Assembly: GCA_000092065.1 (NCBI GenBank)
Contig: CP000590.1
DNA: 64,000 nucleotides
Strand: one strand, 5' to 3'
Origin: Ostreococcus lucimarinus
Lineage: Eukaryota
The notes below the pieces were generated by a model, which searched no databases, was not told where the DNA came from, and saw nothing but the letters and a program-made list of their open reading frames with translations. Below, piece by piece: positions 12,829 to 63,352 of this stretch (position 1 is the stretch's first letter; the number at the start of each line of letters is the position of its first letter). A program made the position numbers and the translations under genes.

Positions 12829-13689
12829 CGCTCGCTTCGCCGCGTCGTTCCCTCGCCGCCGCTTCCCGCGTCGGCGTTCGCCTTCGCGTTCGCGTCCCGC
12901 CGCCTCCTTCCCTCGCCGCGCCCCCTCGCCGCGCCTTCCCGTCGTCCGTCGACGCGCGTTCGCCTCCGCGCTTTCGCACCATCTCGTCGCCGATCCCGGG
13001 CCGTCGTCTTCGCGCGCGCGCTCCCACGCCATGTCGAGATTCGCGTCTCCGACGACCGACGCTCGTCGACGACGCGCGCGCGGATCGCGGCGCGTCGACG
13101 CGCGTCGACGCGGCGCGCGAAGCGCCGAGAACGTCGACGAGCGTTCGCGTCGGAGCGCGTCGGACGCCGCGCTCTGACGCGCGCTGACGCGCGCTGACGC
13201 CGACGAATGACGATTCGTCGACGCCGAGACGCGACCGCGACGACGGACGCGCGCCGAGACGAACGCGCGCGTCGCGGGCGACGACGCGATTCGGGGCGTC
13301 GGCGTGCGTCGGCGTGCGTGGGTTCTCTCATGGCGTTCACGACGCGTTGAATGCGGAAACGTGACGGGTATAATTAGGGTTGCGACGGCATCACCGGACG
13401 GGACGCCAGGCTTTCTTCCCGACGCGACCGGCGCGACCGGCGCTCCGGCGCGTCGGCACTCGTCGACGCGATGGGCGGACGCGTGCGACGATCGAACGAT
13501 CGCGCGCGCGCGAACGACGCGACGCGCGCGGACGAAGAGATGGGCGACGCGGACGCCGCGCGGGCGAACGCGAACGCGAACGCGAACGACGCGACGACGG
13601 CGCCGCGCGGTGAAGGTGCGGGGAAAAATCGCGCGATTCGTTCGATTGATTGTCGCGTCGCGTCGACGCGTCGTGCGTTGGCGAGTTCG

Positions 13690-24582: not shown

Positions 24583-25190
24583 CTGTAAACTCTTTGTCCT
24601 CTTCGACTCCCCGAGCTCGAGTCTATCGTCACCGTCCCGTTCACCGACCGTCACCGATCGCGCGCGCGCAAACGTTCGACACCTCGCCCGCGTCGTCGTC
24701 GCGCATCGCGCGCCGCGTCGTCCATCTCTCTCCGCCTTCGCCTTCGCCTTCGCCTTCGTCCCGCCGCGTCCCCGCGCGTCGCGCGTCGTTCCCGCGACGT
24801 TCGCGCGCATCGACTCCATCGCGCGCGAAACACCCGCGCTTTCGTCGACGCTCGCGCGTCCGTCGCGCGCTCGTCGCGACGCGCGCCGAACCGAACGCGC
24901 GCGTCGTTCGATCGGTCGTCGTTCGCGCCAACGCTGTCACGATCGGCGTCGCGTCGTCGCGCGCGCGCTGCGGTGCGGTGCGGTGTCGCTCGCGACGACG
25001 CGCGCGCGCGACGATCGTCGTTCGTCGCGCGCGCTCGCGTGCGGCTCGGGCGTTCGACGCCGCGCGGCGCGAGGGCCAAGATGTGCCGAGGCGCCGGGGC
25101 GGTCGCCGCGCGCGCGTGTTTGAAATGGAGCGCGGGTCGGAGGTCGCGAGCGGTGTTGCGTGCTTACAAGCGAGCGGAAGCGTGATTAGT

Positions 25191-26990: not shown

Positions 26991-27406
26991 CGCGAGCGCC
27001 CTCGAGTCCTCCCCGTCCTCGCTCGATTTCCCGCTCGTCGACGTCGGTTCGCTCGATCGCTCGAACGCCTCTCGCGCTCGCGCGTGTCTCAGCGCATCAA
27101 GCGTACACTACGATAAAATCGCGCGTCACGCGCGCGCGCGTCGTCAGTCACGTCGTCCCGATCGTTTCCTTCCCTCTTCCTCCGCTCGGCGTCGAGATAT
27201 TTCCTTCTATCCACAACCGCCTCGGCGTTTGAACCATCGTCCCGTCCTTCGCCGTCGTCCGCGCGTCCTCGCCGACCCTCTCTCTCGCTCGCGCGCGTCG
27301 CGCAACCTCCCCGCGCGTCGTTCATCGCGCGCCGTTCGCCCGCCTTCGCCTCGCGCGCGCGCCTCGGCTCGATAATCCATCGCCCCGCGTTCGATCGATC
27401 GTCCCT

Positions 27407-27705: not shown

Positions 27706-27725
27706 TTAGGGTCGTTAGGGTTTAT
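27706..27725. promoter_or_regulatory. Telo-box-like motif (TTAGGGTCGTTAGGGTTT, reverse complement of AAACCCTAA) ~105 bp upstream of the YchJ-like gene
   Basis: Direct reading. Same motif class as the sites at 30979 and 51687. Confidence 0.4.
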
Positions 27726-27829: not shown

Positions 27830-28498
27830 ATGCGCGTCGCGTCGACGCGCGCGCGCGCGGGCGTCGCGGCGCCGCGAACGCGCGACGCGCGAGACCGCGG
27901 ACGCCGCCGGGACGCGACCGCGCGCGCGCGACGCGGGATGCTGGGCGACGCGATGCGCGAGCGCGACGACGCGAGCGAGGAGAGAACGGGGAAACAACGC
28001 GGCGCGTCGGGGTGCGCGTGCGGGAAAGACGCGAGCGTGGCGTACGAGGCGTGCTGCGGGCGGGCGCACGGGGACGCGAACGCGGCGGCGGCGCTCGCCG
28101 CCGAGGACGTGATGCGCGCGAGATTCACGGCGTACGTCGTCGGCGACGCGCAATATATCGTGAGCTCGACGCACGAAGAGTCCAAAGATCGCGCGCGGGA
28201 GTCCCTGCTGAGGGACGCGGAGAACACGATCAAGCGAATACGATTCCACTCGTTTCGAGCGAAGCGGTCGAGCGAGAAAGACGGCGAGGCGTACGTGACG
28301 TACGAGGCGGATTACACCCAAGGAAAGGGAAGGGGAAAGATGAAAACGTTAGCCGAACGCGCGCGCTTGCGAAGAGACGCGGAGACCGGAGGGTGGAAAT
28401 TTGTGGACGCCGTGGCGTTGGGCGCGAACGCGTCGCTCGACGACGCGGGCGACGCCGCCGCGCCGGGCGCGCCCGATCCCAGCCGCCGACCGATGTGA
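27830..28498 (+). CDS. YchJ/UPF0225-like protein with N-terminal SEC-C metal-binding motif and NTF2-like domain (bacterial-type)
   Basis: GCACGKDASVAYEACCG (SEC-C: CxCG...Y..CCG) followed by AEDVMRARFTAYVVGDAQYIVSSTHEE, typical of YchJ. Start could be the ATG at 27938. Confidence 0.55.
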   Translation: MRVASTRARAGVAAPRTRDARDRGRRRDATARARRGMLGDAMRERDDASEERTGKQRGASGCACGKDASVAYEACCGRAHGDANAAAALAAEDVMRARFTAYVVGDAQYIVSSTHEESKDRARESLLRDAENTIKRIRFHSFRAKRSSEKDGEAYVTYEADYTQGKGRGKMKTLAERARLRRDAETGGWKFVDAVALGANASLDDAGDAAAPGAPDPSRRPM

Positions 28499-29495: not shown

Positions 29496-30836
29496 CTAAA
29501 TGTTCTCGCGAAGGACCTTGACGACGGACTTGAACGCGAACCACTCTGGAATGTCCTCGCCGCCTCTCAACATTTGGCGGAACTTGGTGCCGCTGAGCTT
29601 CTTGATGTTGAGACCCTTCTCCTTGGCGACATCGGCGGTGACGTAGCCTTCTTCTTCGGTGTACACGACGTTCAAGCTCGGGACGGTTTTCATGCCGAGC
29701 TCAGCCGCGTTCGCCTTGGCCAAGTCTTGGGCGTCGTACGCGCCGTAAAAGTCTTCTCCGTCGAGGGAAGACTTGGAACCAGCCATATCGCGACCGATGA
29801 TGAAGTGCGTGCAGCCGTAGTTCTTACGAATGATCATGTGCTGAATAGCTTCGCGCGGACCCGCCATGTGCATGGAGTACGGGAGGTAGGCCCAGCGAAT
29901 TTGCGGGTTCTTCACCTCTTCCGCGAGGACGACGTACGTCTTGTATCGCACCAAGCCCGAGATGTCGTCGTCTTGGGTCGGACCCATGGTCGGGTGAACG
30001 AGGCACACGGCGTCCTTACCGACGTTTTCCGCGTGCAAAGCGCGAGTGAAGAGCTCGTAGTGCGCGCGGTGCACCGGGTTGCGGCACTGGAACGCCACGA
30101 CATCCTTACCCGCGGGCAACCCCGCGCGCACCTCGGCGGGCGTCGGGCACGGAAACGGTCGCTGCGGAATGTTCAAACCCTCAATCTTACCACCGATGTA
30201 ATACTTGCGACGCTCCATGGAGATCATCGCCACGCCGGGATGCTCGATGGAGCTCGTCCCGTAGCACATCTTCGCCTCTTTCGGCTTATTCGGCTTCCAC
30301 TTCGACTCCACCGTCAGCACGCCGACGTCCTTGCCCTGATACTTGAGCAACACTCTGTCGCCCGCCTTGGTGTCCTCGCAATTCGTGTCCAACACGATCG
30401 GCAGCCCGAACAACAGCTCGCTCCCCTTCAACCGCATCGTCTCCACGCAGTGTTCGTACTCGTCCTCGTTCATGAACCCTCGCAGCGGCGAGAACCCCCC
30501 CGCGCTCAGCAGCTCGACGTCGCACGCGTTTCGATCCGACAGCTCGAGCGCCCGCGTGCACGACGCGATCGCCCTCGCCTTCGCCCCGTCGTCCTCGAGC
30601 ATCAGATTCACCAGCGCGCCGCCGTGCGGCGCGATCAACCCTTCGCTCTGCGACGCGAACGTCCGCTCGCGCGCCGTCATCGCGCGTCGCGCCGTCGCCG
30701 TCGCCGTCGCCGTCGAACCCTGAGGCGTCGTCGCCGCCGTCGCGAGCGCGTCGCGCGGCGCCCCCGGCGCGGGCCGCGTCACCGCGCATCGCGCGCGACG
30801 CAGCGCATCGCGCGCGAGTCTCGCGCGCATCGCCAT
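29496..30836 (-). CDS. ATPS: ATP sulfurylase (sulfate adenylyltransferase), plastid-targeted
   Basis: QCRNPVHRAHYEL (the QTRN..HRAH motif), a GRD loop, PUA-like N-domain, Ser/Thr/Ala-rich transit peptide. Confidence 0.85.
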   Translation of the reverse strand: MAMRARLARDALRRARCAVTRPAPGAPRDALATAATTPQGSTATATATARRAMTARERTFASQSEGLIAPHGGALVNLMLEDDGAKARAIASCTRALELSDRNACDVELLSAGGFSPLRGFMNEDEYEHCVETMRLKGSELLFGLPIVLDTNCEDTKAGDRVLLKYQGKDVGVLTVESKWKPNKPKEAKMCYGTSSIEHPGVAMISMERRKYYIGGKIEGLNIPQRPFPCPTPAEVRAGLPAGKDVVAFQCRNPVHRAHYELFTRALHAENVGKDAVCLVHPTMGPTQDDDISGLVRYKTYVVLAEEVKNPQIRWAYLPYSMHMAGPREAIQHMIIRKNYGCTHFIIGRDMAGSKSSLDGEDFYGAYDAQDLAKANAAELGMKTVPSLNVVYTEEEGYVTADVAKEKGLNIKKLSGTKFRQMLRGGEDIPEWFAFKSVVKVLRENI

Positions 30837-30978
30837 CGTCCGTCGTCGCGCCGTCGTCGTGTGTCGCGCCGCGCGCGCGGCGGCGATCGATCGCGGCCCG
30901 CGCCGCGTCGCCGTTCGAGCGTTTCTATTTAGACATCCACCTACCCGGAATACGCGCCGAATGGAGATATCAGAGCGA

Positions 30979-31013
30979 TCCTAAACCCTAAACCGATCCT
31001 CAACCCTAAACAC
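30979..31013. repeat. Interstitial plant-type telomere-like repeat (CTAAACCCTAAACC...CAACCCTAAAC) in the divergent ATPS/HSP60 promoter
   Basis: Direct reading. Corresponds to the AAACCCTAA telo-box cis-element class. Confidence 0.65.
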
Positions 31014-31169
31014 CCGGGCGTGGAAAAAGGCCCCCGACGCGACGCGTCCCACATCGCCACGCGACGACGCGACGAACGGCGCGATGCGACGACACGCGAC
31101 GCGCGCGATGCGAGCGCTCACGCGGTACGACGACGACGACGACGACGAACGCGTGCGATGCGCGCGAGC

Positions 31170-33384
<2,215 letters not shown>

Positions 33385-35078: not shown

Positions 35079-36045
35079 ATTTGTAGGCGTATCAAGATGG
35101 AAGGATGGCCATTGAATTTACCGAACGTAAATTATTCTCCCAAAGACGTGTGCGATGGGAAAGACTCAACAGTTCGGAGAGCGAGAAAAACCGCGCAAAG
35201 ATCAGATTTTCCTCGGATTACGGTTCATAATCACAGCAAAACTCAGCTGACACGCATGAATGATTGTTGTGCATTGTTCATCATCGGAATCTCTCTCTCT
35301 CGCGCGTCGCATTCAAGAAAAACCGTCCACCGGTGAGCCGGAAAACGCCGTCGACGCGTCAGACAAGGCTGAATGTTAATCCACAGGAGTGTTCAGACAC
35401 AAACGTATACGTCGTATGGTATATCGTCATCAGCCGCGTCGACATCACGTTCTCCGATCGCCTCACCGCCGCCTCCCTCGCGCGCGTTCCCGGTGTCCTC
35501 CCCGTCGTCGCGTTCCGAAACGGCTCAGTCTTATGCATAATGAGTTCATCGAACAATGGCCACAAAGTCTCGTACAAGAGGTGTCAGAATGTGGTGATCA
35601 TCATCGCCGTTTCGCAATCGCACGCCGTGGTCGCATTTCCTCGCGCGTCGCCCCCTCGCGCGTCCCGAGCGACCGTCCAGACGCCGCGCGAACGATCATT
35701 CACCGATGCAAACCCATCGCCCGCGCGCATCTTCACCGCGCTCGCGCTCTCGTTCGCGCGCGTTCGAGCCATCGCGCGCGCGCCTTCGCACGCACCGTTA
35801 TCGCGCGCACCGCATGGTCGCGTCGTCGTCGCGACGCGCGTCGACGCGCGTCGGAGTGGCGGTCTTCAGTCGCGGCGGCGGCACATCGCGACGACTCGAC
35901 GCGACGCGACGCGACGCGACGCGCACGACCCGCGGGACGACCGCGCGCGACCGCTCGAGATCGAGCGCGCGACGTCCGTCACCAGTCCTCACCGTCGCGA
36001 GCGCGTCGAACGCGAGCGAACGCGCGAGGCGCGAGTGGCGGCGGC

Positions 36046-37746: not shown

Positions 37747-38241
37747 TAGCCCGCGTATCACTAGCGATCAAAGACACCAATCACTCAGTATTCATCACTC
37801 TCGTTTTACAAACTCACTTATCCATCGGTTCCAGCACGACGGGCGTCGCGCTCCCCTCTCGCGGCCACGCCTTCATGCGCGCCTTCGTCGCGTCTTCCCA
37901 CTCCTTCGTCATCGTCGACGGCAACGGATCGCCTGCTCGCGCGCGCGCGCGCCCATCGTCAGTCCCCACCCCCTCCCGCGCGCTCGCGTCGATCGACCCT
38001 CCGCGCGCGCTCGCGCGCGTCCGTTCGCCCGTTCGTAGGGTCGCGCCTCGACCCCCCTCGATCGCGCGCGCGCGCCCGTTCGCGTCGCCCTCGCCGCGTC
38101 GCGCACCTCCGAACACTTTCGCGACGTTCACGGCGTAATACGTCACCCCCGCCGCGCCGCACAGCGCCGCCGTGGCGCTCGCCACCTGCGCGATCGACGC
38201 GCTCGTCATGGCGCGGCGTCGCGGTGTGGCGTCGCGCGCGG

Positions 38242-38440
38242 CGTCGTGATCGACTCGTCACGTATTTAAGGACTCTTCTTGGGTCGCGAACGGTCGATCG
38301 TCGTCGCGGCGTCGTGCTCGAGTCGTCACGTATTTAAGGACTCTTCTTGGGTCGCGAACGGTCGATCGTCGTCGCGGCGTCGTGATCGAGTCGTCACGTA
38401 TTTAAGGACTCTTCTTGGGTCGCGAACGGTCGAATTCAAA
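38242..38440. repeat. Near-perfect tandem repeat, ~68-bp unit x 2.9, each unit containing CACGTATTTAAGG (TATA-like), 260 bp upstream of DNA2
   Basis: Unit GTCGTG(A/C)TCGA(C/G)TCGTCACGTATTTAAGGACTCTTCTTGGGTCGCGAACGGTCGATCGTCGTCGCGGC, repeated starting at 38242, 38310 and 38379. Only 2 substitutions between copies; copy 3 diverges at its 3' end. Confidence 0.85.
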
Positions 38441-50062: not shown

Positions 50063-51073
50063 TTATCGCGGTGCGCCGTCGGTGGACGTCGGCGCGTCGT
50101 CGTCGTCGTCGGCGGTCGGCGACGCGTCTTCGTCTTCGTCTTCGTCTTCGTCTTCGTCTCGCGCGCGCTCGGCGTCTTTGATTTTCGCGTCCGCCTCGTT
50201 CGATCGATTCGCGATTTTCACCACCTTGCGCGCGGGCACGACGGCTTCTATGGCTTCGCCCCAATCGCCGCGCTCGAGAAACGACGTCAAGACGTCCGCC
50301 GTTTGGTTCACGGTGAGCACGGGCGCGCCGCGCGTCTCGAGAAACTCGCCGATCGGCAACCGCGCGTGTTCGACGCCCAATTCCCGAGCCTTGCGCAGCG
50401 TCAGCCCTTTGTGTCGATTACGATCGATGAACCCACCGATGACGTACGTCTTCCCCGCCTCTATCTCGCGCAGTTCGCGCTCGCTATCGGCGGTGAGATA
50501 CACGAGCGACTTCGCCGTCGTCTCGCTCTCCGCCGCCGTCTCCCTCAACGTCTTCCCCAACCGCACGACGTGCCAATTCTCCCACCCCGCGTTCATCCTT
50601 CCCATCTGTTCCTCGAACGCTTCGCTCATTCGCGTGAAGCTCATCTTAAACGGCGCCGTCGTCTTACAATTCCTCTCGTACGCCGCGCGCAACTGTTTCA
50701 TCAAGCTCCCCCACCGCTCGCGTTCCATCGTCGTCGTCAGATCCTCGTCGCAATCGATCGTCAATCCGTACGCCGACGAGAGCTGCGCCCGTCGCCTTTC
50801 CTTCCTCTCCGCCGTCTCGCGTCGTCGCGCCTCGATCCTCGCGCCGCGCTCGACGAAAAACGCGTCCCGCGCCTCGCTCGACATCGCGTTCACTTTGGAG
50901 TGAAACGCCGCCTTGGTCGACGCCGCGACGTCGGCTTTGCGCCTCTTCGCCTCGGCGCGCTTCGCGAGCTTGGCGTCGCATCGTCGCTGTCGCTTGAGCC
51001 GCTTTTTCATCGCGCGCTTGCTCTCGGCGCGCCGGACGACGTCGCCATCGTCGCCGTCGTCGCGGGTCGCCAT
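50063..51073 (-). CDS. TRM10: tRNA (guanine/adenine-9-N1)-methyltransferase TRM10/TRMT10 (SPOUT class)
   Basis: LTIDCDEDLT...SLVYLTADSERELREIEAGKTYVIGGFIDRNRHKGLTLRKARELGVEHARLPI...PVLTVNQTADVL matches the TRM10 SPOUT core. Basic N-terminus from the ATG at 51073. Confidence 0.7.
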   Translation of the reverse strand: MATRDDGDDGDVVRRAESKRAMKKRLKRQRRCDAKLAKRAEAKRRKADVAASTKAAFHSKVNAMSSEARDAFFVERGARIEARRRETAERKERRRAQLSSAYGLTIDCDEDLTTTMERERWGSLMKQLRAAYERNCKTTAPFKMSFTRMSEAFEEQMGRMNAGWENWHVVRLGKTLRETAAESETTAKSLVYLTADSERELREIEAGKTYVIGGFIDRNRHKGLTLRKARELGVEHARLPIGEFLETRGAPVLTVNQTADVLTSFLERGDWGEAIEAVVPARKVVKIANRSNEADAKIKDAERARDEDEDEDEDEDASPTADDDDDAPTSTDGAPR

Positions 51074-51129
51074 GACGCGCGCGCCGCGCTCTATCACCGT
51101 CGTTTTCGCTCTACATCCGTCGGCGGACG

Positions 51130-51142
51130 ATAACCCTAAATC
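51130..51142. promoter_or_regulatory. Telo-box-like AACCCTAAA motif about 60 bp upstream of the TRM10 start codon
   Basis: gataaccctaaatc read directly. Confidence 0.35.
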
Positions 51143-51321
51143 AGAAGGAGATTATTTGTTACACAAAATTGTTCACGACTACGACGCGAAGACATATAAA
51201 TAGAGCGCTCAAGACTTGGTAAACGACCGTCCGCGCCCCGAAACGCGGCGTCACACGCGCGCGCGGGACCACTCGCGAGCGAACGAACGAACGAGCGACA
51301 CGTTTCAAATTTCTTTTCTTC

Positions 51322-51477
51322 ATGGCGTGCGATAAGTGCGGCGACGCGTGCGCGTGCGGCCCGGGTGCGTGCGCGTGCGCGAGCGCGCTGACGTGTCATG
51401 CGTGCGGGCACAAGAGTTGCGGCTGCGCGCGATGTAGATGCGCGTGCGATTCGTGCCAGTGCCAGACGAAGAAGTGA
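51322..51477 (+). CDS. Candidate metallothionein-like small Cys-rich protein (51 aa, 15 Cys), not in the >=60-aa ORF track
   Basis: MACDKCGDACACGPGACACASALTCHACGHKSCGCARCRCACDSCQCQTKK. Repeated CxC/CxxC pairs. ATG in TTCATGG context. TATAAATA at 51197..51206 (~115 bp upstream). Sits alone in a 370-bp gap between the TRM10 promoter and TRAP1. Caveat: GCGTGC-rich DNA can yield Cys-Ala runs by chance. Confidence 0.35.
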   Translation: MACDKCGDACACGPGACACASALTCHACGHKSCGCARCRCACDSCQCQTKK

Positions 51478-51686
51478 TGATTGCGTCACTTTTTTCGTCG
51501 GCGCATTCCGCCGCGCGCGCTCGGGGCGCGAGTTCCGAGGGCGACCGCGGAGGATGCGACCGAGGGCGACCGCGGAGGATGCGACCGAGGGGAAGGATGA
51601 AAGTTACCGTGGCAACACTCAATAGCAGTGCTTTTCAATCAATCAATACACGATTTTCCACTGAAACAACTTTTTAATGAATAATA

Positions 51687-51706
51687 CTAAACCCTAAACC
51701 CTAAAC
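51687..51706. repeat. Interstitial plant-type telomere repeat (CTAAACCCTAAACCCTAAAC, ~3 units) in the TRAP1 promoter
   Basis: Direct reading, 140 bp upstream of the TRAP1 ATG. Confidence 0.7.
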
Positions 51707-51846
51707 TAAGTAAGGCGTTAATGAATAATAAGGCGTCGCGCGCGTCTTTGTATGGGTCGGTCGGTCGGTGTCGCGTCGCGTCCTTCGCGCGTCCACGGCG
51801 TTCGCGACGCCGAAATCCGCGTCGCACGACGACGCGGATTTCGGCG

Positions 51847-53949
51847 ATGCTGACGGTGGCGCGCGCGTGTCGACGGCGCGCCGCGCGCGCGGTCCGGCGC
51901 GGCGTCGCGGACGCGCGCGCGACGCGCGGGGCGTCGACGACGACGGATCGCGCGTGGGACACATCTTCATCATCTGCGTCGGCGTCGGCGCGGACGTCGA
52001 CGGCGCGGACGACGAGGCGCGGACGGGCGACGGAGCGCCTGGCGTTCCGCGCGGAGACGAAACGATTGCTGGACATCGTGACGAACTCGCTGTACGAGGA
52101 CAAGGAGGTGTATCTGCGAGAGCTGGTGTCGAACGCGAGCGACGCGCTGGAGAAGGCGCGACACGCGGCGCTGACGGAGACGCCGAACGAGGAGGAACTC
52201 GCGATAAAGATCGCGACGGATGAGGGCGAGGGGAAGGTGCTGGTGGTGTCGGATAACGGGGTCGGGATGACGCGGGAGGAGCTGATGGAGAATTTGGGGA
52301 CGATCGCGCGGAGCGGGAGCAAGGCGTTTTTGGAGGGGTTGGACGCGGACGCGGACGCGGCGTCGAACATCATCGGGAAATTCGGCGTGGGGTTCTACGC
52401 GAGTTTCATGGTGAGCGATAAGGTGGAGGTGATCTCGAACGCGGGCGCGCGAGGGGATGGGAAGGCGTGGAAGTGGAGCTCGACCGGGGATGGAGAGTTT
52501 ACGATTGAGGAGGCGACGGAGAGCGACGAGGCGCCGACGCGGGGGACGAAAATCGTGATGCACATCAAAAGCGACGATAAACACTTGACGTCCAAGTGGG
52601 GGGTGGAGACGGTGCTGAAAAAGTACAGCTCGTTCGTCGCGTTCCCGGTGCTGTTGAATGGGCACAAGATGAACGACGTCGGGGCGCTTTGGATGAAGGA
52701 TGAAAAGGACATAACCGACGACGATTCCATCGCGTTTTACCGCTTTGTGAGCGGCGCGAGCGACATGCCGCCGTTTCGCATGTCGTTCAAAGCCGATGCG
52801 CCCATGACGATTCGAAGCTTGCTGTACTTTCCCGAAGAAAATCCCGAACGCGTCGCCGGATTCGGCGGGCAGACGAATTCGGGCGTGTCGCTGTACGCCA
52901 GGCGCGTGATGATTCAAGAGAAGACGGAAAAATTGCTCCCGGCGTTTTTGCGCTTTGTGCGCGGCGTGGTCGATTGCGAAGACATCCCGCTGAACATCTC
53001 GCGCGAGTCGCTTCAAGATTCCATGCTCGTCATGCGGCTCGGCCAAATAATCACAAAGCGCGTGCTCAAGTTTTTGGATGAAAAGGCGAAGAAGGAGCCG
53101 GAAAAGTACAACAAATGGTTCGCCAATCTCGGCTTCTTCTTGAAGGAGGGCGTGTGCTCGGAGTACGCGTACAAACTCGAACTCGCAGAGCTGTTGCGTT
53201 ACGAATCGAGCTCGACGGAGACTGGAAAATTGACGTCTTTCCGCGAGTACGCCGCGCGCATGCCCGAGGGACAAGACAAAGTGTATTACATCGTCGCGCC
53301 GTCGCGGCTGCAAGCCGAAGCGTCGCCGTATTTGGAAGCGGCGAAGTCGCGGGGCTACGAAGTTTTGTTCTTGTACGCTCACATCGATGAGTTCGTGATG
53401 CAGCACTTAATGAGCGTCGCGGGCAAGCAATTGGTGAGCGTTGAAGCCGCAAATCTCGACGTCGACGGCGAAAAAGCCGACGGTGAAGAGTCAAAATCAA
53501 ACGACGCCGCGGCGTTGGACGACGCCGCGGGCGCGGAACTTTGTAAGTGGTTCAGCGACGACGCTCTCGCGGGAAAGCTCAAGGAGGTGAAGCTGAGTAA
53601 CAGATTGGTGAGCTCTCCCGCGCTCATCTCCGGACACGAGCCCGAAGCCATGAGACGGTACCGCATGGTTCAAACCATGGCGAGCGACGCGGCGGCGAGT
53701 AAAAAGCTCGCCGAGATGTCCAACGACTTCTCCATGATGACGCTCGAGTTGAATCCGAAACACGAAATGATCAAAAGGATCAACGCCGCGCGCACGAGCG
53801 AAGACGCCGGCACGCGAAGATTAGCCGCGCTGGTCGCCGAACAAATATTTGACAACGCGCGCGTCGCCGCGGGATCTTTAGACGATCCTCGAGCGATGCT
53901 CGGTCGTCTGAACGAAATTCTCGAAAAGACGCTTCCGGCGAAGGAGTAG
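51847..53949 (+). CDS. TRAP1: Mitochondrial HSP90 paralogue TRAP1
   Basis: Extended collinearity with TRAP1: FRAETKRLLDIVTNSLYEDKEVYLRELVSNASDALEKARH, GTIARSGSKAF, IGKFGVGFYASFMV, LRFVRGVVDCEDIPLNISRE, KLTSFREYAARM, NPKHEMIKRIN, DPRAMLGRLNEIL. Arg-rich presequence. Start at the first ATG 51847; the ORF-track start at 51721 is non-ATG. Confidence 0.9.
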   Translation: MLTVARACRRRAARAVRRGVADARATRGASTTTDRAWDTSSSSASASARTSTARTTRRGRATERLAFRAETKRLLDIVTNSLYEDKEVYLRELVSNASDALEKARHAALTETPNEEELAIKIATDEGEGKVLVVSDNGVGMTREELMENLGTIARSGSKAFLEGLDADADAASNIIGKFGVGFYASFMVSDKVEVISNAGARGDGKAWKWSSTGDGEFTIEEATESDEAPTRGTKIVMHIKSDDKHLTSKWGVETVLKKYSSFVAFPVLLNGHKMNDVGALWMKDEKDITDDDSIAFYRFVSGASDMPPFRMSFKADAPMTIRSLLYFPEENPERVAGFGGQTNSGVSLYARRVMIQEKTEKLLPAFLRFVRGVVDCEDIPLNISRESLQDSMLVMRLGQIITKRVLKFLDEKAKKEPEKYNKWFANLGFFLKEGVCSEYAYKLELAELLRYESSSTETGKLTSFREYAARMPEGQDKVYYIVAPSRLQAEASPYLEAAKSRGYEVLFLYAHIDEFVMQHLMSVAGKQLVSVEAANLDVDGEKADGEESKSNDAAALDDAAGAELCKWFSDDALAGKLKEVKLSNRLVSSPALISGHEPEAMRRYRMVQTMASDAAASKKLAEMSNDFSMMTLELNPKHEMIKRINAARTSEDAGTRRLAALVAEQIFDNARVAAGSLDDPRAMLGRLNEILEKTLPAKE

Positions 53950-61942: not shown

Positions 61943-63352
61943 TCATCGAGCGTCTAGCTTTTCACGAATCGCGCGCACGACCTCTTCCGCATTCGCCTTC
62001 GCGGACACTTTCCCAGCATCGATTGTATCCGGAATTGGGGCGGGAAACGGCGGAAGGAAACTCAAACCGGCTAAATTTTGTGCCCACTTGTACGGCTTGG
62101 CGTTGGATGGCGCGCACGAAGCGTCAAACGTAAAATTGGGTGCCACCACGGCGACGGCGTGATTCGGCATCTCAGACCCGTCGTCATCTGGAAACAATTC
62201 TCCGAGAAATTTCTCATCTTCCGGTTTCGATGACACGACGACGACGTGTAATTTCGTGAGATAGGTGAAGAAAACTTTCGTAGCACCAAAGCCGACCTCG
62301 ACTCGGAGTGGATGTTCCTCATATAACGACGACGACGCACTCGCCGCTTGCCGCCCGCCCCTCGCTTTCCGCTTTTTGCTTCTACGATTATTCTCAGCAC
62401 CTTCGTCCACGAGTTCGCCCTCCTCTTCGCTTGCCTTTTTCTGCTTGAAATTTTGCGCGTCGTCGATTCTCCCCACCAGTTCGACTTTGATTTCCTCTTC
62501 GTTCTGCTGCAAGTGCTTCAACTGCGCGTACAGCACGTGCAACGGCACTGGAAGTAGTCCGATCCGCGCGTCGAGATCTTCCGTGCTCGCGTACGCGAGA
62601 TCAAACATTCGCCTCAACGGTTCGGCAGATTTGCGCACATTCGTCATCGTCGCCTCTAAACTCCCCCCCAACAGCTTCTTCTTCTCCGCTACCTGTTGTT
62701 GTAACGCCGCTAACTCCGCTTTCAACGCGTTTTGTTCCTCTACCATCTCCCTCCGCACGATGAGCTCGTGCGCTAACCGTCGCGTCATCAGTTCGTATTC
62801 GTCCCGCGGCTTCTTCGTCGGCAAACCGCGTCTCTTGGCGTCCGCCTCGTACTCCTTCAATTCCATCAACTCGATCCCTCCCGCGCTCACTCCCCCACCA
62901 CTTCCCTCTGCATCCGCGTGTCGCTTCAGCGCGCTCTCTCGCCACGCTGTCTCGTACGCCACCGTCGCCGCGCGCACTCGCGCCGGGTCCGTTTCCTTGT
63001 CCCGCCGCCGCGTCCCCGCCTTGAGGTATTCCAGTCCCATCAACGCTCGCCTCTGCGCCGTTCGCACGCTCGCGAGCGTCTTCATGCACGTCTCTACGGT
63101 AGGTTTACGCGCATCGCTCGTCTTCGTTCCCTCTTCGACGAGCTGCGCGACGTTTTCGCGCAATTCTTGCGTGAGCTCTTGAATCAGCTCAAACTGTGCT
63201 TCGGTGCTCTCGGGCGTCGCATCCTCGGCGTTGGGCGCGGGCGAGGGCGCGCCGACGCGCGAAGGGACGTCGAGAGACGTCGTCGTGCGATGGGCGGCGA
63301 CGGGGGAGGTTGGTTCGCTCGGTGCGCTCGCGGCGCGCTTGCGCGGCGGCAT
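61943..63352 (-). CDS. Coiled-coil protein, possibly THO complex subunit 5 (FMIP)-like
   Basis: 469-aa ORF. Long heptad regions and a conserved-looking LPVPLHVLYAQLKHL segment. Assignment to THOC5 is by gestalt only. Confidence 0.3.
   Translation of the reverse strand: MPPRKRAASAPSEPTSPVAAHRTTTSLDVPSRVGAPSPAPNAEDATPESTEAQFELIQELTQELRENVAQLVEEGTKTSDARKPTVETCMKTLASVRTAQRRALMGLEYLKAGTRRRDKETDPARVRAATVAYETAWRESALKRHADAEGSGGGVSAGGIELMELKEYEADAKRRGLPTKKPRDEYELMTRRLAHELIVRREMVEEQNALKAELAALQQQVAEKKKLLGGSLEATMTNVRKSAEPLRRMFDLAYASTEDLDARIGLLPVPLHVLYAQLKHLQQNEEEIKVELVGRIDDAQNFKQKKASEEEGELVDEGAENNRRSKKRKARGGRQAASASSSLYEEHPLRVEVGFGATKVFFTYLTKLHVVVVSSKPEDEKFLGELFPDDDGSEMPNHAVAVVAPNFTFDASCAPSNAKPYKWAQNLAGLSFLPPFPAPIPDTIDAGKVSAKANAEEVVRAIREKLDAR

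Follow-up and report, generated by a model that had tools for sequence, protein, structure and literature searches.

Telo-box-like telomere repeats in the promoters of Ostreococcus lucimarinus

Introduction

Telo-boxes are among the best-conserved words of plant promoters. The first enrichment of these words in promoters, together with the TRB proteins that read them, has been placed at the root of the streptophyte lineage (PMC10167121; bioRxiv 10.64898/2026.09.09.750301). The 2026 preprint that inferred the first telobox enrichment near this point has Chlamydomonas reinhardtii as the only non-streptophyte green alga in its genome list (bioRxiv 10.64898/2026.09.09.750301), and the TRB family itself arose in streptophytes, with none found outside them (PMC10167121). 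A short cluster of telomere repeats lying between the genes for ATP sulfurylase and a mitochondrial-type HSP60 in the chlorophyte alga Ostreococcus lucimarinus raises the question of whether words of this kind are also at work in promoters on the other side of the green lineage. In the literature that we searched, promoter telo-boxes are not reported for Ostreococcus.

We use “the window” for the whole 64,000-nucleotide stretch of O. lucimarinus DNA that was analysed. The open reading frame at 61943-63352 (minus strand) matches XP_001420073.1 (strain CCE9901) without a difference, and several more in the window cluster with O. lucimarinus or O. tauri proteins.

Results

A telomere-repeat cluster in the ATP sulfurylase-HSP60 promoter

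Read directly from the window, positions 30979-31013 are TCCTAAACCCTAAACCGATCCTCAACCCTAAACAC. This cluster, which we call site 3 since the sites are numbered by position, and the genes on either side of it are as follows.

30976..31011, plus strand: site-3 cluster, an 18-bp unit present twice, CGATCCTAAACCCTAAAC / CGATCCTCAACCCTAAAC (Tandem Repeats Finder)
30981..30994, plus strand: distal copy of site 3, CTAAACCCTAAACC, two telomere units, polymorphic
31001..31011, plus strand: proximal copy of site 3, CAACCCTAAAC, within a decayed array of ~2.5 units, TCCTCAACCCTAAACACCC
29496..30836, minus strand: ATP sulfurylase gene (ATG 30836), 446 aa, PUA_2 plus ATP-sulfurylase, with an N-terminal extension
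31327..33384, plus strand: mitochondrial-type HSP60 gene (ATG 31327), Cpn60_TCP1, two coding blocks with an intron near 32125-32300

The two 18-bp units differ at one base, and the tandem duplication that they form bears CTAAACCCTAAAC and CAACCCTAAAC, with AAACCCTAA at 30983-30991 and CAACCCTAAAC at 31001-31011. The divergent promoter that holds them is 490 bp long. The cluster lies 143 bp from the ATG of ATP sulfurylase, to which the motif is antisense, while the HSP60 ATG, relative to which it is in sense orientation, lies 314 bp downstream; these measurements bear out the motif and the two distances given in an earlier note on this DNA. Amongst matches to solved structures, the Cpn60 gene product fits mitochondrial HSP60 best (E = 1e-71, against 2e-50 for chloroplast Cpn60B1). 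The HSP60 5' region also contains microsatellites, (ACG)7, (ACGA)10 and (GAAT/GAAC)n, at 31127-31225, whose lengths vary between conspecific haplotypes.

[quoted passage not shown] The motif is identical both to this unit and to the plant telo-box AAACCCTA(A), just as the earlier note had it (PMC2794166). A core, AACCCTAA, is found at all five telomere-repeat loci of the window, and the longer AAACCCTAA at sites 2, 3 and 5.

Further sites lie mostly between divergent genes

The three additional sites listed in the earlier note all exist (27706-27723, 51132-51140 and 51687-51707), and a fifth is present at 13374-13381. The sites and two of the genes that they adjoin are these.

13374..13381, minus strand: site 1, a single AACCCTAA between a JmjC gene (minus) and a RING-CH-like gene (plus, ATG 13471)
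27706..27723, minus strand: site 2, AAACCCTAA-CG-ACCCTAA, with AAACCCTAA at 27715-27723 (minus)
51132..51140, plus strand: site 4, AACCCTAAA
51687..51707, plus strand: site 5, CTAAACCCTAAACCCTAAACT, 2.9 units, with AAACCCTAA within 51689-51704
50063..51073, minus strand: gene for a TRM10-type tRNA m1G methyltransferase, the divergent partner at sites 4 and 5
51847..53949, plus strand: gene of the HSP90 family, TRAP1 (mitochondrial HSP90), downstream of the 2.9-unit array

Site 2 is flanked by a bromodomain gene (minus, probable first-exon ATG at 27325) and a YchJ-like gene (plus, ATG at 27830) that is followed by an MRP-L28-like gene. Site 4 lies 59 bp from the TRM10 ATG (51073, minus) and 182 bp upstream of a Cys-rich open reading frame of 51 aa, and site 5 stands in sense orientation 140 bp upstream of the TRAP1 ATG (51847). 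Contigs that reach ~10 kb past the right end of the window reveal a sixth site, ~3.2 kb past that end: a telomere-repeat cluster (L035:6806-6826) reading AACCCTAAACCCTAA(G / ACCCT / ...), in the divergent promoter of SRP54 and a mitochondrial-carrier gene.

Several other features of these regions were noted. The Cys-rich reading frame between TRM10 and TRAP1 (51322-51477, plus strand; MACDKCGDACACGPGACAC...) is metallothionein-like; it has no Pfam match and no annotation at the orthologous position in O. tauri, and it is kept, with two amino-acid changes, in haplotype L018. A perfect hairpin with a 17-bp stem (51808-51846, plus strand; CGCCGAAATCCGCGTCG ... CGACGCGGATTTCGGCG) runs right up to the TRAP1 start codon (51847) and is likewise kept in L018; a sub-threshold, miRNA-like Rfam match at 51784-51870 corresponds to it. 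A tRNA-Ala (CGC) gene occupies intergenic DNA between the alpha-amylase and bromodomain genes (24957-25036, plus strand).

All the window sites fall within promoter-bearing intergenic regions, 40-400 bp from an ATG. The setting is divergent for four of the five, and for five of six loci once site 6 is counted. The 40-bp flanks of the sites are never higher, and mostly lower, in GC than the remainder of the same intergenic segment, and TATA-like words occur near sites 3 and 4 only.

A position between divergently transcribed genes at five of six loci would also fit motifs that are functional as chromatin-boundary or Polycomb-type nucleation sites rather than as activating telo-boxes. PRC2 components are retained in Ostreococcus, and telomere repeats recruit PRC2 in both plants and fungi (PMC8788455); the same word is found at gene 5' ends in the telobox PREs of Arabidopsis (TRB-PRC2) and in the ITS-seeded H3K27me3 of Neurospora. 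Nevertheless, we consider this explanation improbable, as the neighbouring genes, amongst them HSP60, TRAP1, SRP54, ATP sulfurylase and TRM10, are housekeeping genes expected to be active, and as TRB, the plant PRC2 adaptor, has not been found outside streptophytes (PMC10167121). It is in these housekeeping neighbours and in the absence of the adaptor family that the Ostreococcus sites, known here from their sequence alone, differ from telobox PREs.

The core word is enriched and confined to promoter DNA in two species

A gene map combining a codon-usage score, Pfam matches and the genes annotated in the syntenic part of O. tauri assigned about 15% of the window to intergenic DNA (9.7 kb in 34 segments), which is GC-rich at gene 5' ends (0.62-0.74) and AT-rich at 3' ends. 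The core AACCCTAA occurs seven times at five loci: 13374 (minus), 27715 (minus), 30984 and 31002 (plus), 51132 (plus), and 51690 and 51697 (plus). Whole-window shuffles predict 0.27 copies; for intergenic DNA a second-order Markov model predicts 0.036, and per-segment Markov-1 shuffles predict 0.027. Genic DNA has no copy, all seven being intergenic (p = 8e-5 for all five loci being intergenic by chance). AACCCTAA is the most over-represented non-microsatellite 8-mer of the window's intergenic DNA; the only coding AACCCTA in the window is a AACCCTAG inside Dna2. Five of about 20 promoter-bearing intergenic regions in the window carry the motif.

One-mismatch variants are only marginally enriched in intergenic DNA (4 against 1.2 expected). 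As exact copies (7) outnumber them, AACCCTAA behaves as a sharply specified word. Furthermore, copies at sites 3, 5 and 6 recur with the 7-bp telomere period, implying that this is genuine telomere-repeat sequence and no coincidental 8-mer.

The analysis as a whole drew on ~74 kb of DNA of the O. lucimarinus type and ~58 kb from O. tauri. In the O. tauri sequence, 9.4 kb of intergenic DNA contains three copies of AACCCTA (0.08 expected), at two loci, and 48.8 kb of genic DNA contains none. Both loci are divergent promoters, one shared by Dna2 and a DUF1138 gene and the other by a methyltransferase gene and the gene for biotin synthase. At least two species of Ostreococcus thus show enrichment that is restricted to promoters. 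The equal frequency in coding and intergenic DNA that the earlier note had named as a result that would count against it was not what we found: in the window every AACCCTAA is intergenic, and the same holds for O. tauri.

These figures bear on a group of more prosaic explanations, that the motifs arose by chance, are relics of an ancestral chromosome end or fusion, or represent a telomerase-RNA template. Each motif is indeed short (8-21 bp), and a telomerase RNA template comprises ~1.5 C-strand units. Chance is nevertheless excluded by seven copies against 0.03-0.3 expected and by the probability of all loci being intergenic (p = 8e-5), and we regard the group as a whole as very improbable. 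A fusion or ancestral-telomere scar was rejected, since the arrays have at most three units, run in one direction, and sit within a gene order that O. tauri and other clades also keep; the synteny there of the HSP60-ATP sulfurylase and TRM10-TRAP1 gene pairs upholds the earlier note's view that no chromosome end or fusion scar is involved. A telomerase-RNA template was also rejected, given six loci of which several are polymorphic and the lack of an Rfam match at the motifs of sites 3-5, a weak test as green-algal telomerase RNAs are perhaps unmodelled. An Rfam scan of the whole window at gathering thresholds returned only snoR1 (35522-35608), and E-value scans of 50900-52000 and 30750-31400 returned nothing at the motifs.

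Cores are retained while copies vary within O. lucimarinus

More than 20 conspecific metagenome haplotypes, 98.9-99.7% identical across aligned segments, were available for comparison; a metagenome scan by Dna2 gave eight loci, all of them conspecific, and that scan was thus a narrow sample. The cores of site 1, of the main copy of site 2 and of the proximal copy of site 3 are present in all 9-11 informative haplotypes. Site 1 is invariant across nine conspecific haplotypes, and at site 2 the main copy is invariant while a degenerate second copy varies. Amongst 26 core positions no variable position was seen where ~2 would be expected from the flanks, a comparison without power (Poisson ~0.13).

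The distal copy of site 3 is an indel polymorphism: of 11 informative haplotypes, four (the window, L020, L024 and L027) have TCCTAAACCCTAAA where the seven others have CGA, the outgroups being unalignable and the allele unpolarised. On the G-strand the window reads ...CGGT/TTAGGGTTTAGG/A/TCGCTC, as against ...CGGT/CG/TCGCTC in other haplotypes. Judged from this sequence, the extra bases would extend the telomere register from a GGT 3' end, as addition by telomerase would, and an 18-bp duplication combined with a 7-bp deletion and one substitution would explain the allele equally well. Repeat number varies elsewhere too: site 5 has 2.9 units in the window and about 2 in haplotype L018, and site 6 differs in both repeat number and 3' end across four haplotypes (L035-L038).

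Site 4 is a hypervariable segment with three mutually unalignable haplotypes, one of which adjoins a PIF/Harbinger transposase fragment. Each of the three contains a telomere-like heptamer (TAACCCTAAAT, GAAACCCTAGT and ATTTTAGGGGC), for which we estimate a chance of about 0.02 per haplotype in so short a segment.

Two structural observations belong with these comparisons. In L012 (12714-14232) and L013 (12150-12431), corresponding to the window from ~51089 onward, lower-GC DNA replaces the sequence past the TRM10 promoter; it codes for the C-terminal part of a PIF/Harbinger transposase (Plant_tran 4.5e-9, DDE_Tnp_4 2.4e-7), and this variant coincides exactly with the position of site 4 in the window. 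Separately, the independent metagenome contigs L001, L003 and L004 all end at window ~27860-27950, in the GC-rich, low-complexity start of the YchJ-like gene; this common break just downstream of the bromodomain-YchJ promoter suggests a repeat that is hostile to assembly.

This variability would fit the repeats being a neutral by-product, in which telomerase adds one to three units to 3' ends at breaks in open and recombination-prone promoter DNA, or short arrays grow through slippage or duplication, with no regulatory function; such insertions would persist only in non-coding DNA and would soon decay or be deleted. Promoter bias alone is also expected from a promoter-targeted mutational process (Gaspin et al. 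2010, PMC3022908), and an origin of this kind has already been published as a model for plant telo-boxes (Gaspin et al., PMC3022908). The indel and copy-number polymorphism at sites 3, 5 and 6, the extra bases at site 3 that prolong the telomere register from a GGT 3' end, the position of site 4 in a structurally unstable segment with a Harbinger-type transposase fragment in some strains, and the scarcity of decayed one-mismatch copies, consistent with young insertions, all fit such a process. The Ostreococcus arrays likewise resemble the short interstitial telomeric sequences left by break repair in having one to three units, haplotype indels, a GGT-end register (site 3) and a location in promoters or unstable DNA (PMC3022908). 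They differ from them in their non-telomeric spacers, in the 18-bp duplication at site 3 and in the presence of cores in all informative haplotypes. The short ITS of vertebrates are further examples of break-repair insertions made by telomerase.

Other evidence is harder to reconcile with neutrality. Cores are kept in every informative haplotype, and a telomere-like heptamer recurs in each of three site-4 haplotypes that cannot be aligned with one another. At sites 2 and 3, non-telomeric spacers stand between the copies, and the copies thus resemble homotypic binding-site clusters more than the product of a single processive telomerase event, the pair at site 3 fitting an 18-bp duplication equally well. 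In addition, a density of five in about 20 regions would require a very active process in a strongly compacted genome. Taken together, we view a purely neutral origin as a serious possibility that falls somewhat short of probable.

The testable sites are not shared with O. tauri or, where checked, with other Ostreococcus clades

None of the five O. tauri promoters orthologous to those of sites 2, 3, 4, 5 and 6 contains the motif, and ~46 kb of contigs representing at least two further Ostreococcus clades lack sites 2-5. Gene order is unchanged in these other-clade contigs, whose ATP sulfurylase is 83-91% and TRAP1 76-82% identical to the window, and the HSP60-ATP sulfurylase and TRM10-TRAP1 pairs are syntenic both there and in O. 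tauri. In phylogenetic footprinting, the promoters of O. tauri and the other clades could not be aligned with the window and lacked the motif. The O. tauri site between Dna2 and DUF1138 has no counterpart in the window: the O. tauri Dna2 promoter carries a double telo-box (L011:2111-2131) where the window has a tandem repeat of a 68-bp unit.

That repeat, upstream of Dna2 at 38237-38433, comprises 2.9 copies with 97% matches. The O. tauri promoter between HSP60 and ATP sulfurylase contains two different tandem repeats, and Ostreococcus promoters seem to evolve largely via tandem duplication.

If half of all functional sites were retained, finding none of five shared would have p = 0.03. This result, based on five sites only, argues against strong gene-specific conservation and is compatible with weak conservation or none; species-specific sites are also what neutral insertion would leave. 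A single positive sign of conservation, no more than a hint, comes from a Micromonas-like contig with one AACCCTAG 62 bp upstream of SRP54, where by an estimate from base composition ~1 per contig is expected by chance.

The earlier note had argued from the recurrence of the motif for a conserved regulatory role rather than chance. The second half of this argument stands, as seven copies against 0.03-0.3 expected exclude chance; the first does not, with the motif at 0 of 5 orthologous promoters in O. tauri and 0 of 4 checked in other clades, a distal copy at site 3 in only 4 of 11 haplotypes, and no partner motif (see below).

Likeness to land-plant telo-boxes, with no significant link to gene function

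In land plants the telo-box (AAACCCTAA) is the same word as in Ostreococcus, and in both cases it is the host's own telomere unit. It lies in 5' flanking DNA near gene starts and in roughly 10-25% of promoters, as the Ostreococcus motif does, and the set of genes that bear it turns over strongly between species, again as in Ostreococcus (PMC3022908; bioRxiv 10.64898/2026.09.09.750301). Land-plant promoters with telo-boxes include those of eEF1A, ribosomal-protein, snoRNA and many other genes, with TRB and Pur-alpha as binders. The plant element is further marked by a narrow placement about the transcription start site (about -50 to +50, or in the 5' UTR), by its association with site II or TEF boxes, and by being shared between orthologous promoters of related species beyond chance; for the Ostreococcus motif, position is given by its 40-400 bp distances to ATGs.

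The Ostreococcus motif differs from this pattern in being found in a chlorophyte, where the TRB family has not been found (PMC10167121), in being absent from all five orthologous promoters of a sister species, and in lacking both a site II/TEF partner and a demonstrable link to translation genes. A search of the +/-90 bp around each site in the window found no site II (TGGGCY) or other partner motif, only CG-rich low-complexity words being common to the five. The functions of flanking genes are mixed. Those downstream in sense orientation include HSP60, TRAP1 and the mitochondrial carrier, and the over-representation of mitochondrial functions is not significant (p = 0.15). Amongst translation-related genes of the window, IF3, the SPB4-like helicase and snoR1 are without a telo-box, in a window that has no cytosolic ribosomal-protein gene. 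The association with translation and organelle biogenesis that the earlier note carried over from land plants is accordingly only suggestive.

The snoR1 gene (RF00345), a C/D-box snoRNA at 35522-35608 on the minus strand, scores 66 bits where the gathering threshold is 49; it is flanked by the genes for the primase large subunit and the SPB4-like DEAD helicase. There is no telo-box upstream of it, unlike many plant snoRNA genes.

The observation is clearly non-random, and concerns a telo-box-like promoter word that is not conserved at the same genes and has no significant tie to a functional class. We assign the motif to the broad kind of promoter-embedded short telomere repeats, with no demonstrated membership of the plant telo-box regulon.

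Discussion

We favour a reading in which the repeats are telo-box-like promoter elements with rapid turnover, read by a candidate telomere-repeat-binding Myb protein, and give it an even chance of being correct. It draws on enrichment in two species, core retention, homotypic clusters, and the heptamers in unalignable site-4 haplotypes. A regulatory role for these promoter telomere repeats is plausible, if unproven, and most likely the Ostreococcus element would work in the manner of the land-plant telo-box.

In this model, arrays of 1.3-3 TTTAGGG units with the core AACCCTAA, lying in short and often bidirectional Ostreococcus promoters, would be bound near the core promoter by a Myb protein that recognises double-stranded telomere repeats. 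Because the TRB family is absent, the binder in this chlorophyte would belong to the TRFL class; two class-I TRFL Myb proteins are known from O. lucimarinus (PMC3400083), XP_001421395.1 and XP_001416857.1, and proteins of this type are the probable binders. Binding, we infer, would help to open, activate or delimit the promoter, much as at the sites of Tbf1, Teb1 and Rap1 in fungi. The elements themselves may arise through telomerase-templated addition, an 18-bp duplication or 7-bp slippage at promoter breaks, and their fast birth and change would lead to the gene sets bearing the motif differing between sister species.

Tbf1 and Rap1 of S. cerevisiae, Candida Tbf1 and S. pombe Teb1 are telomere proteins of the Myb/SANT kind that act as general promoter-opening or insulating factors. 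Their sites, like those in Ostreococcus, are telomere-repeat-like words in compact promoters, and they mark conserved regulons (ribosomal protein, snoRNA and histone genes). In Ostreococcus, where the elements have been followed in DNA sequence only, no regulon is evident.

Regulatory use and neutral origin are not exclusive, as elements can arise neutrally and then gain a use. A bolder extension, which we find rather unlikely as it stands, would have promoter telo-boxes be older than the streptophyte TRB proteins, with telomerase or slippage creating, enlarging and removing them on population time-scales, and read by a TRFL-type protein acting as a general factor of bidirectional promoters. 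Its population-time-scale component draws on the site-3 indel, the differing repeat numbers of sites 5 and 6, and the haplotype replacements seen at site 4.

Ostreococcus is a practical system for separating selection from mutational footprint, having promoters of ~200-500 bp, few transcription factors, luciferase reporters and rich population metagenomes. If the repeats prove to be a mutational footprint only, our findings amount to a modest note on genome dynamics. If instead they are elements of the kind that we favour, their promoter-restricted enrichment in two Ostreococcus species would extend the phenomenon to chlorophytes, or else imply that it evolved twice, and would indicate a different reader protein, of the TRFL class. 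Were birth and loss on population time-scales to hold true as well, these promoters, in the most compact of all free-living eukaryotes, would offer a live example of the telomere machinery seeding the birth of cis-elements.
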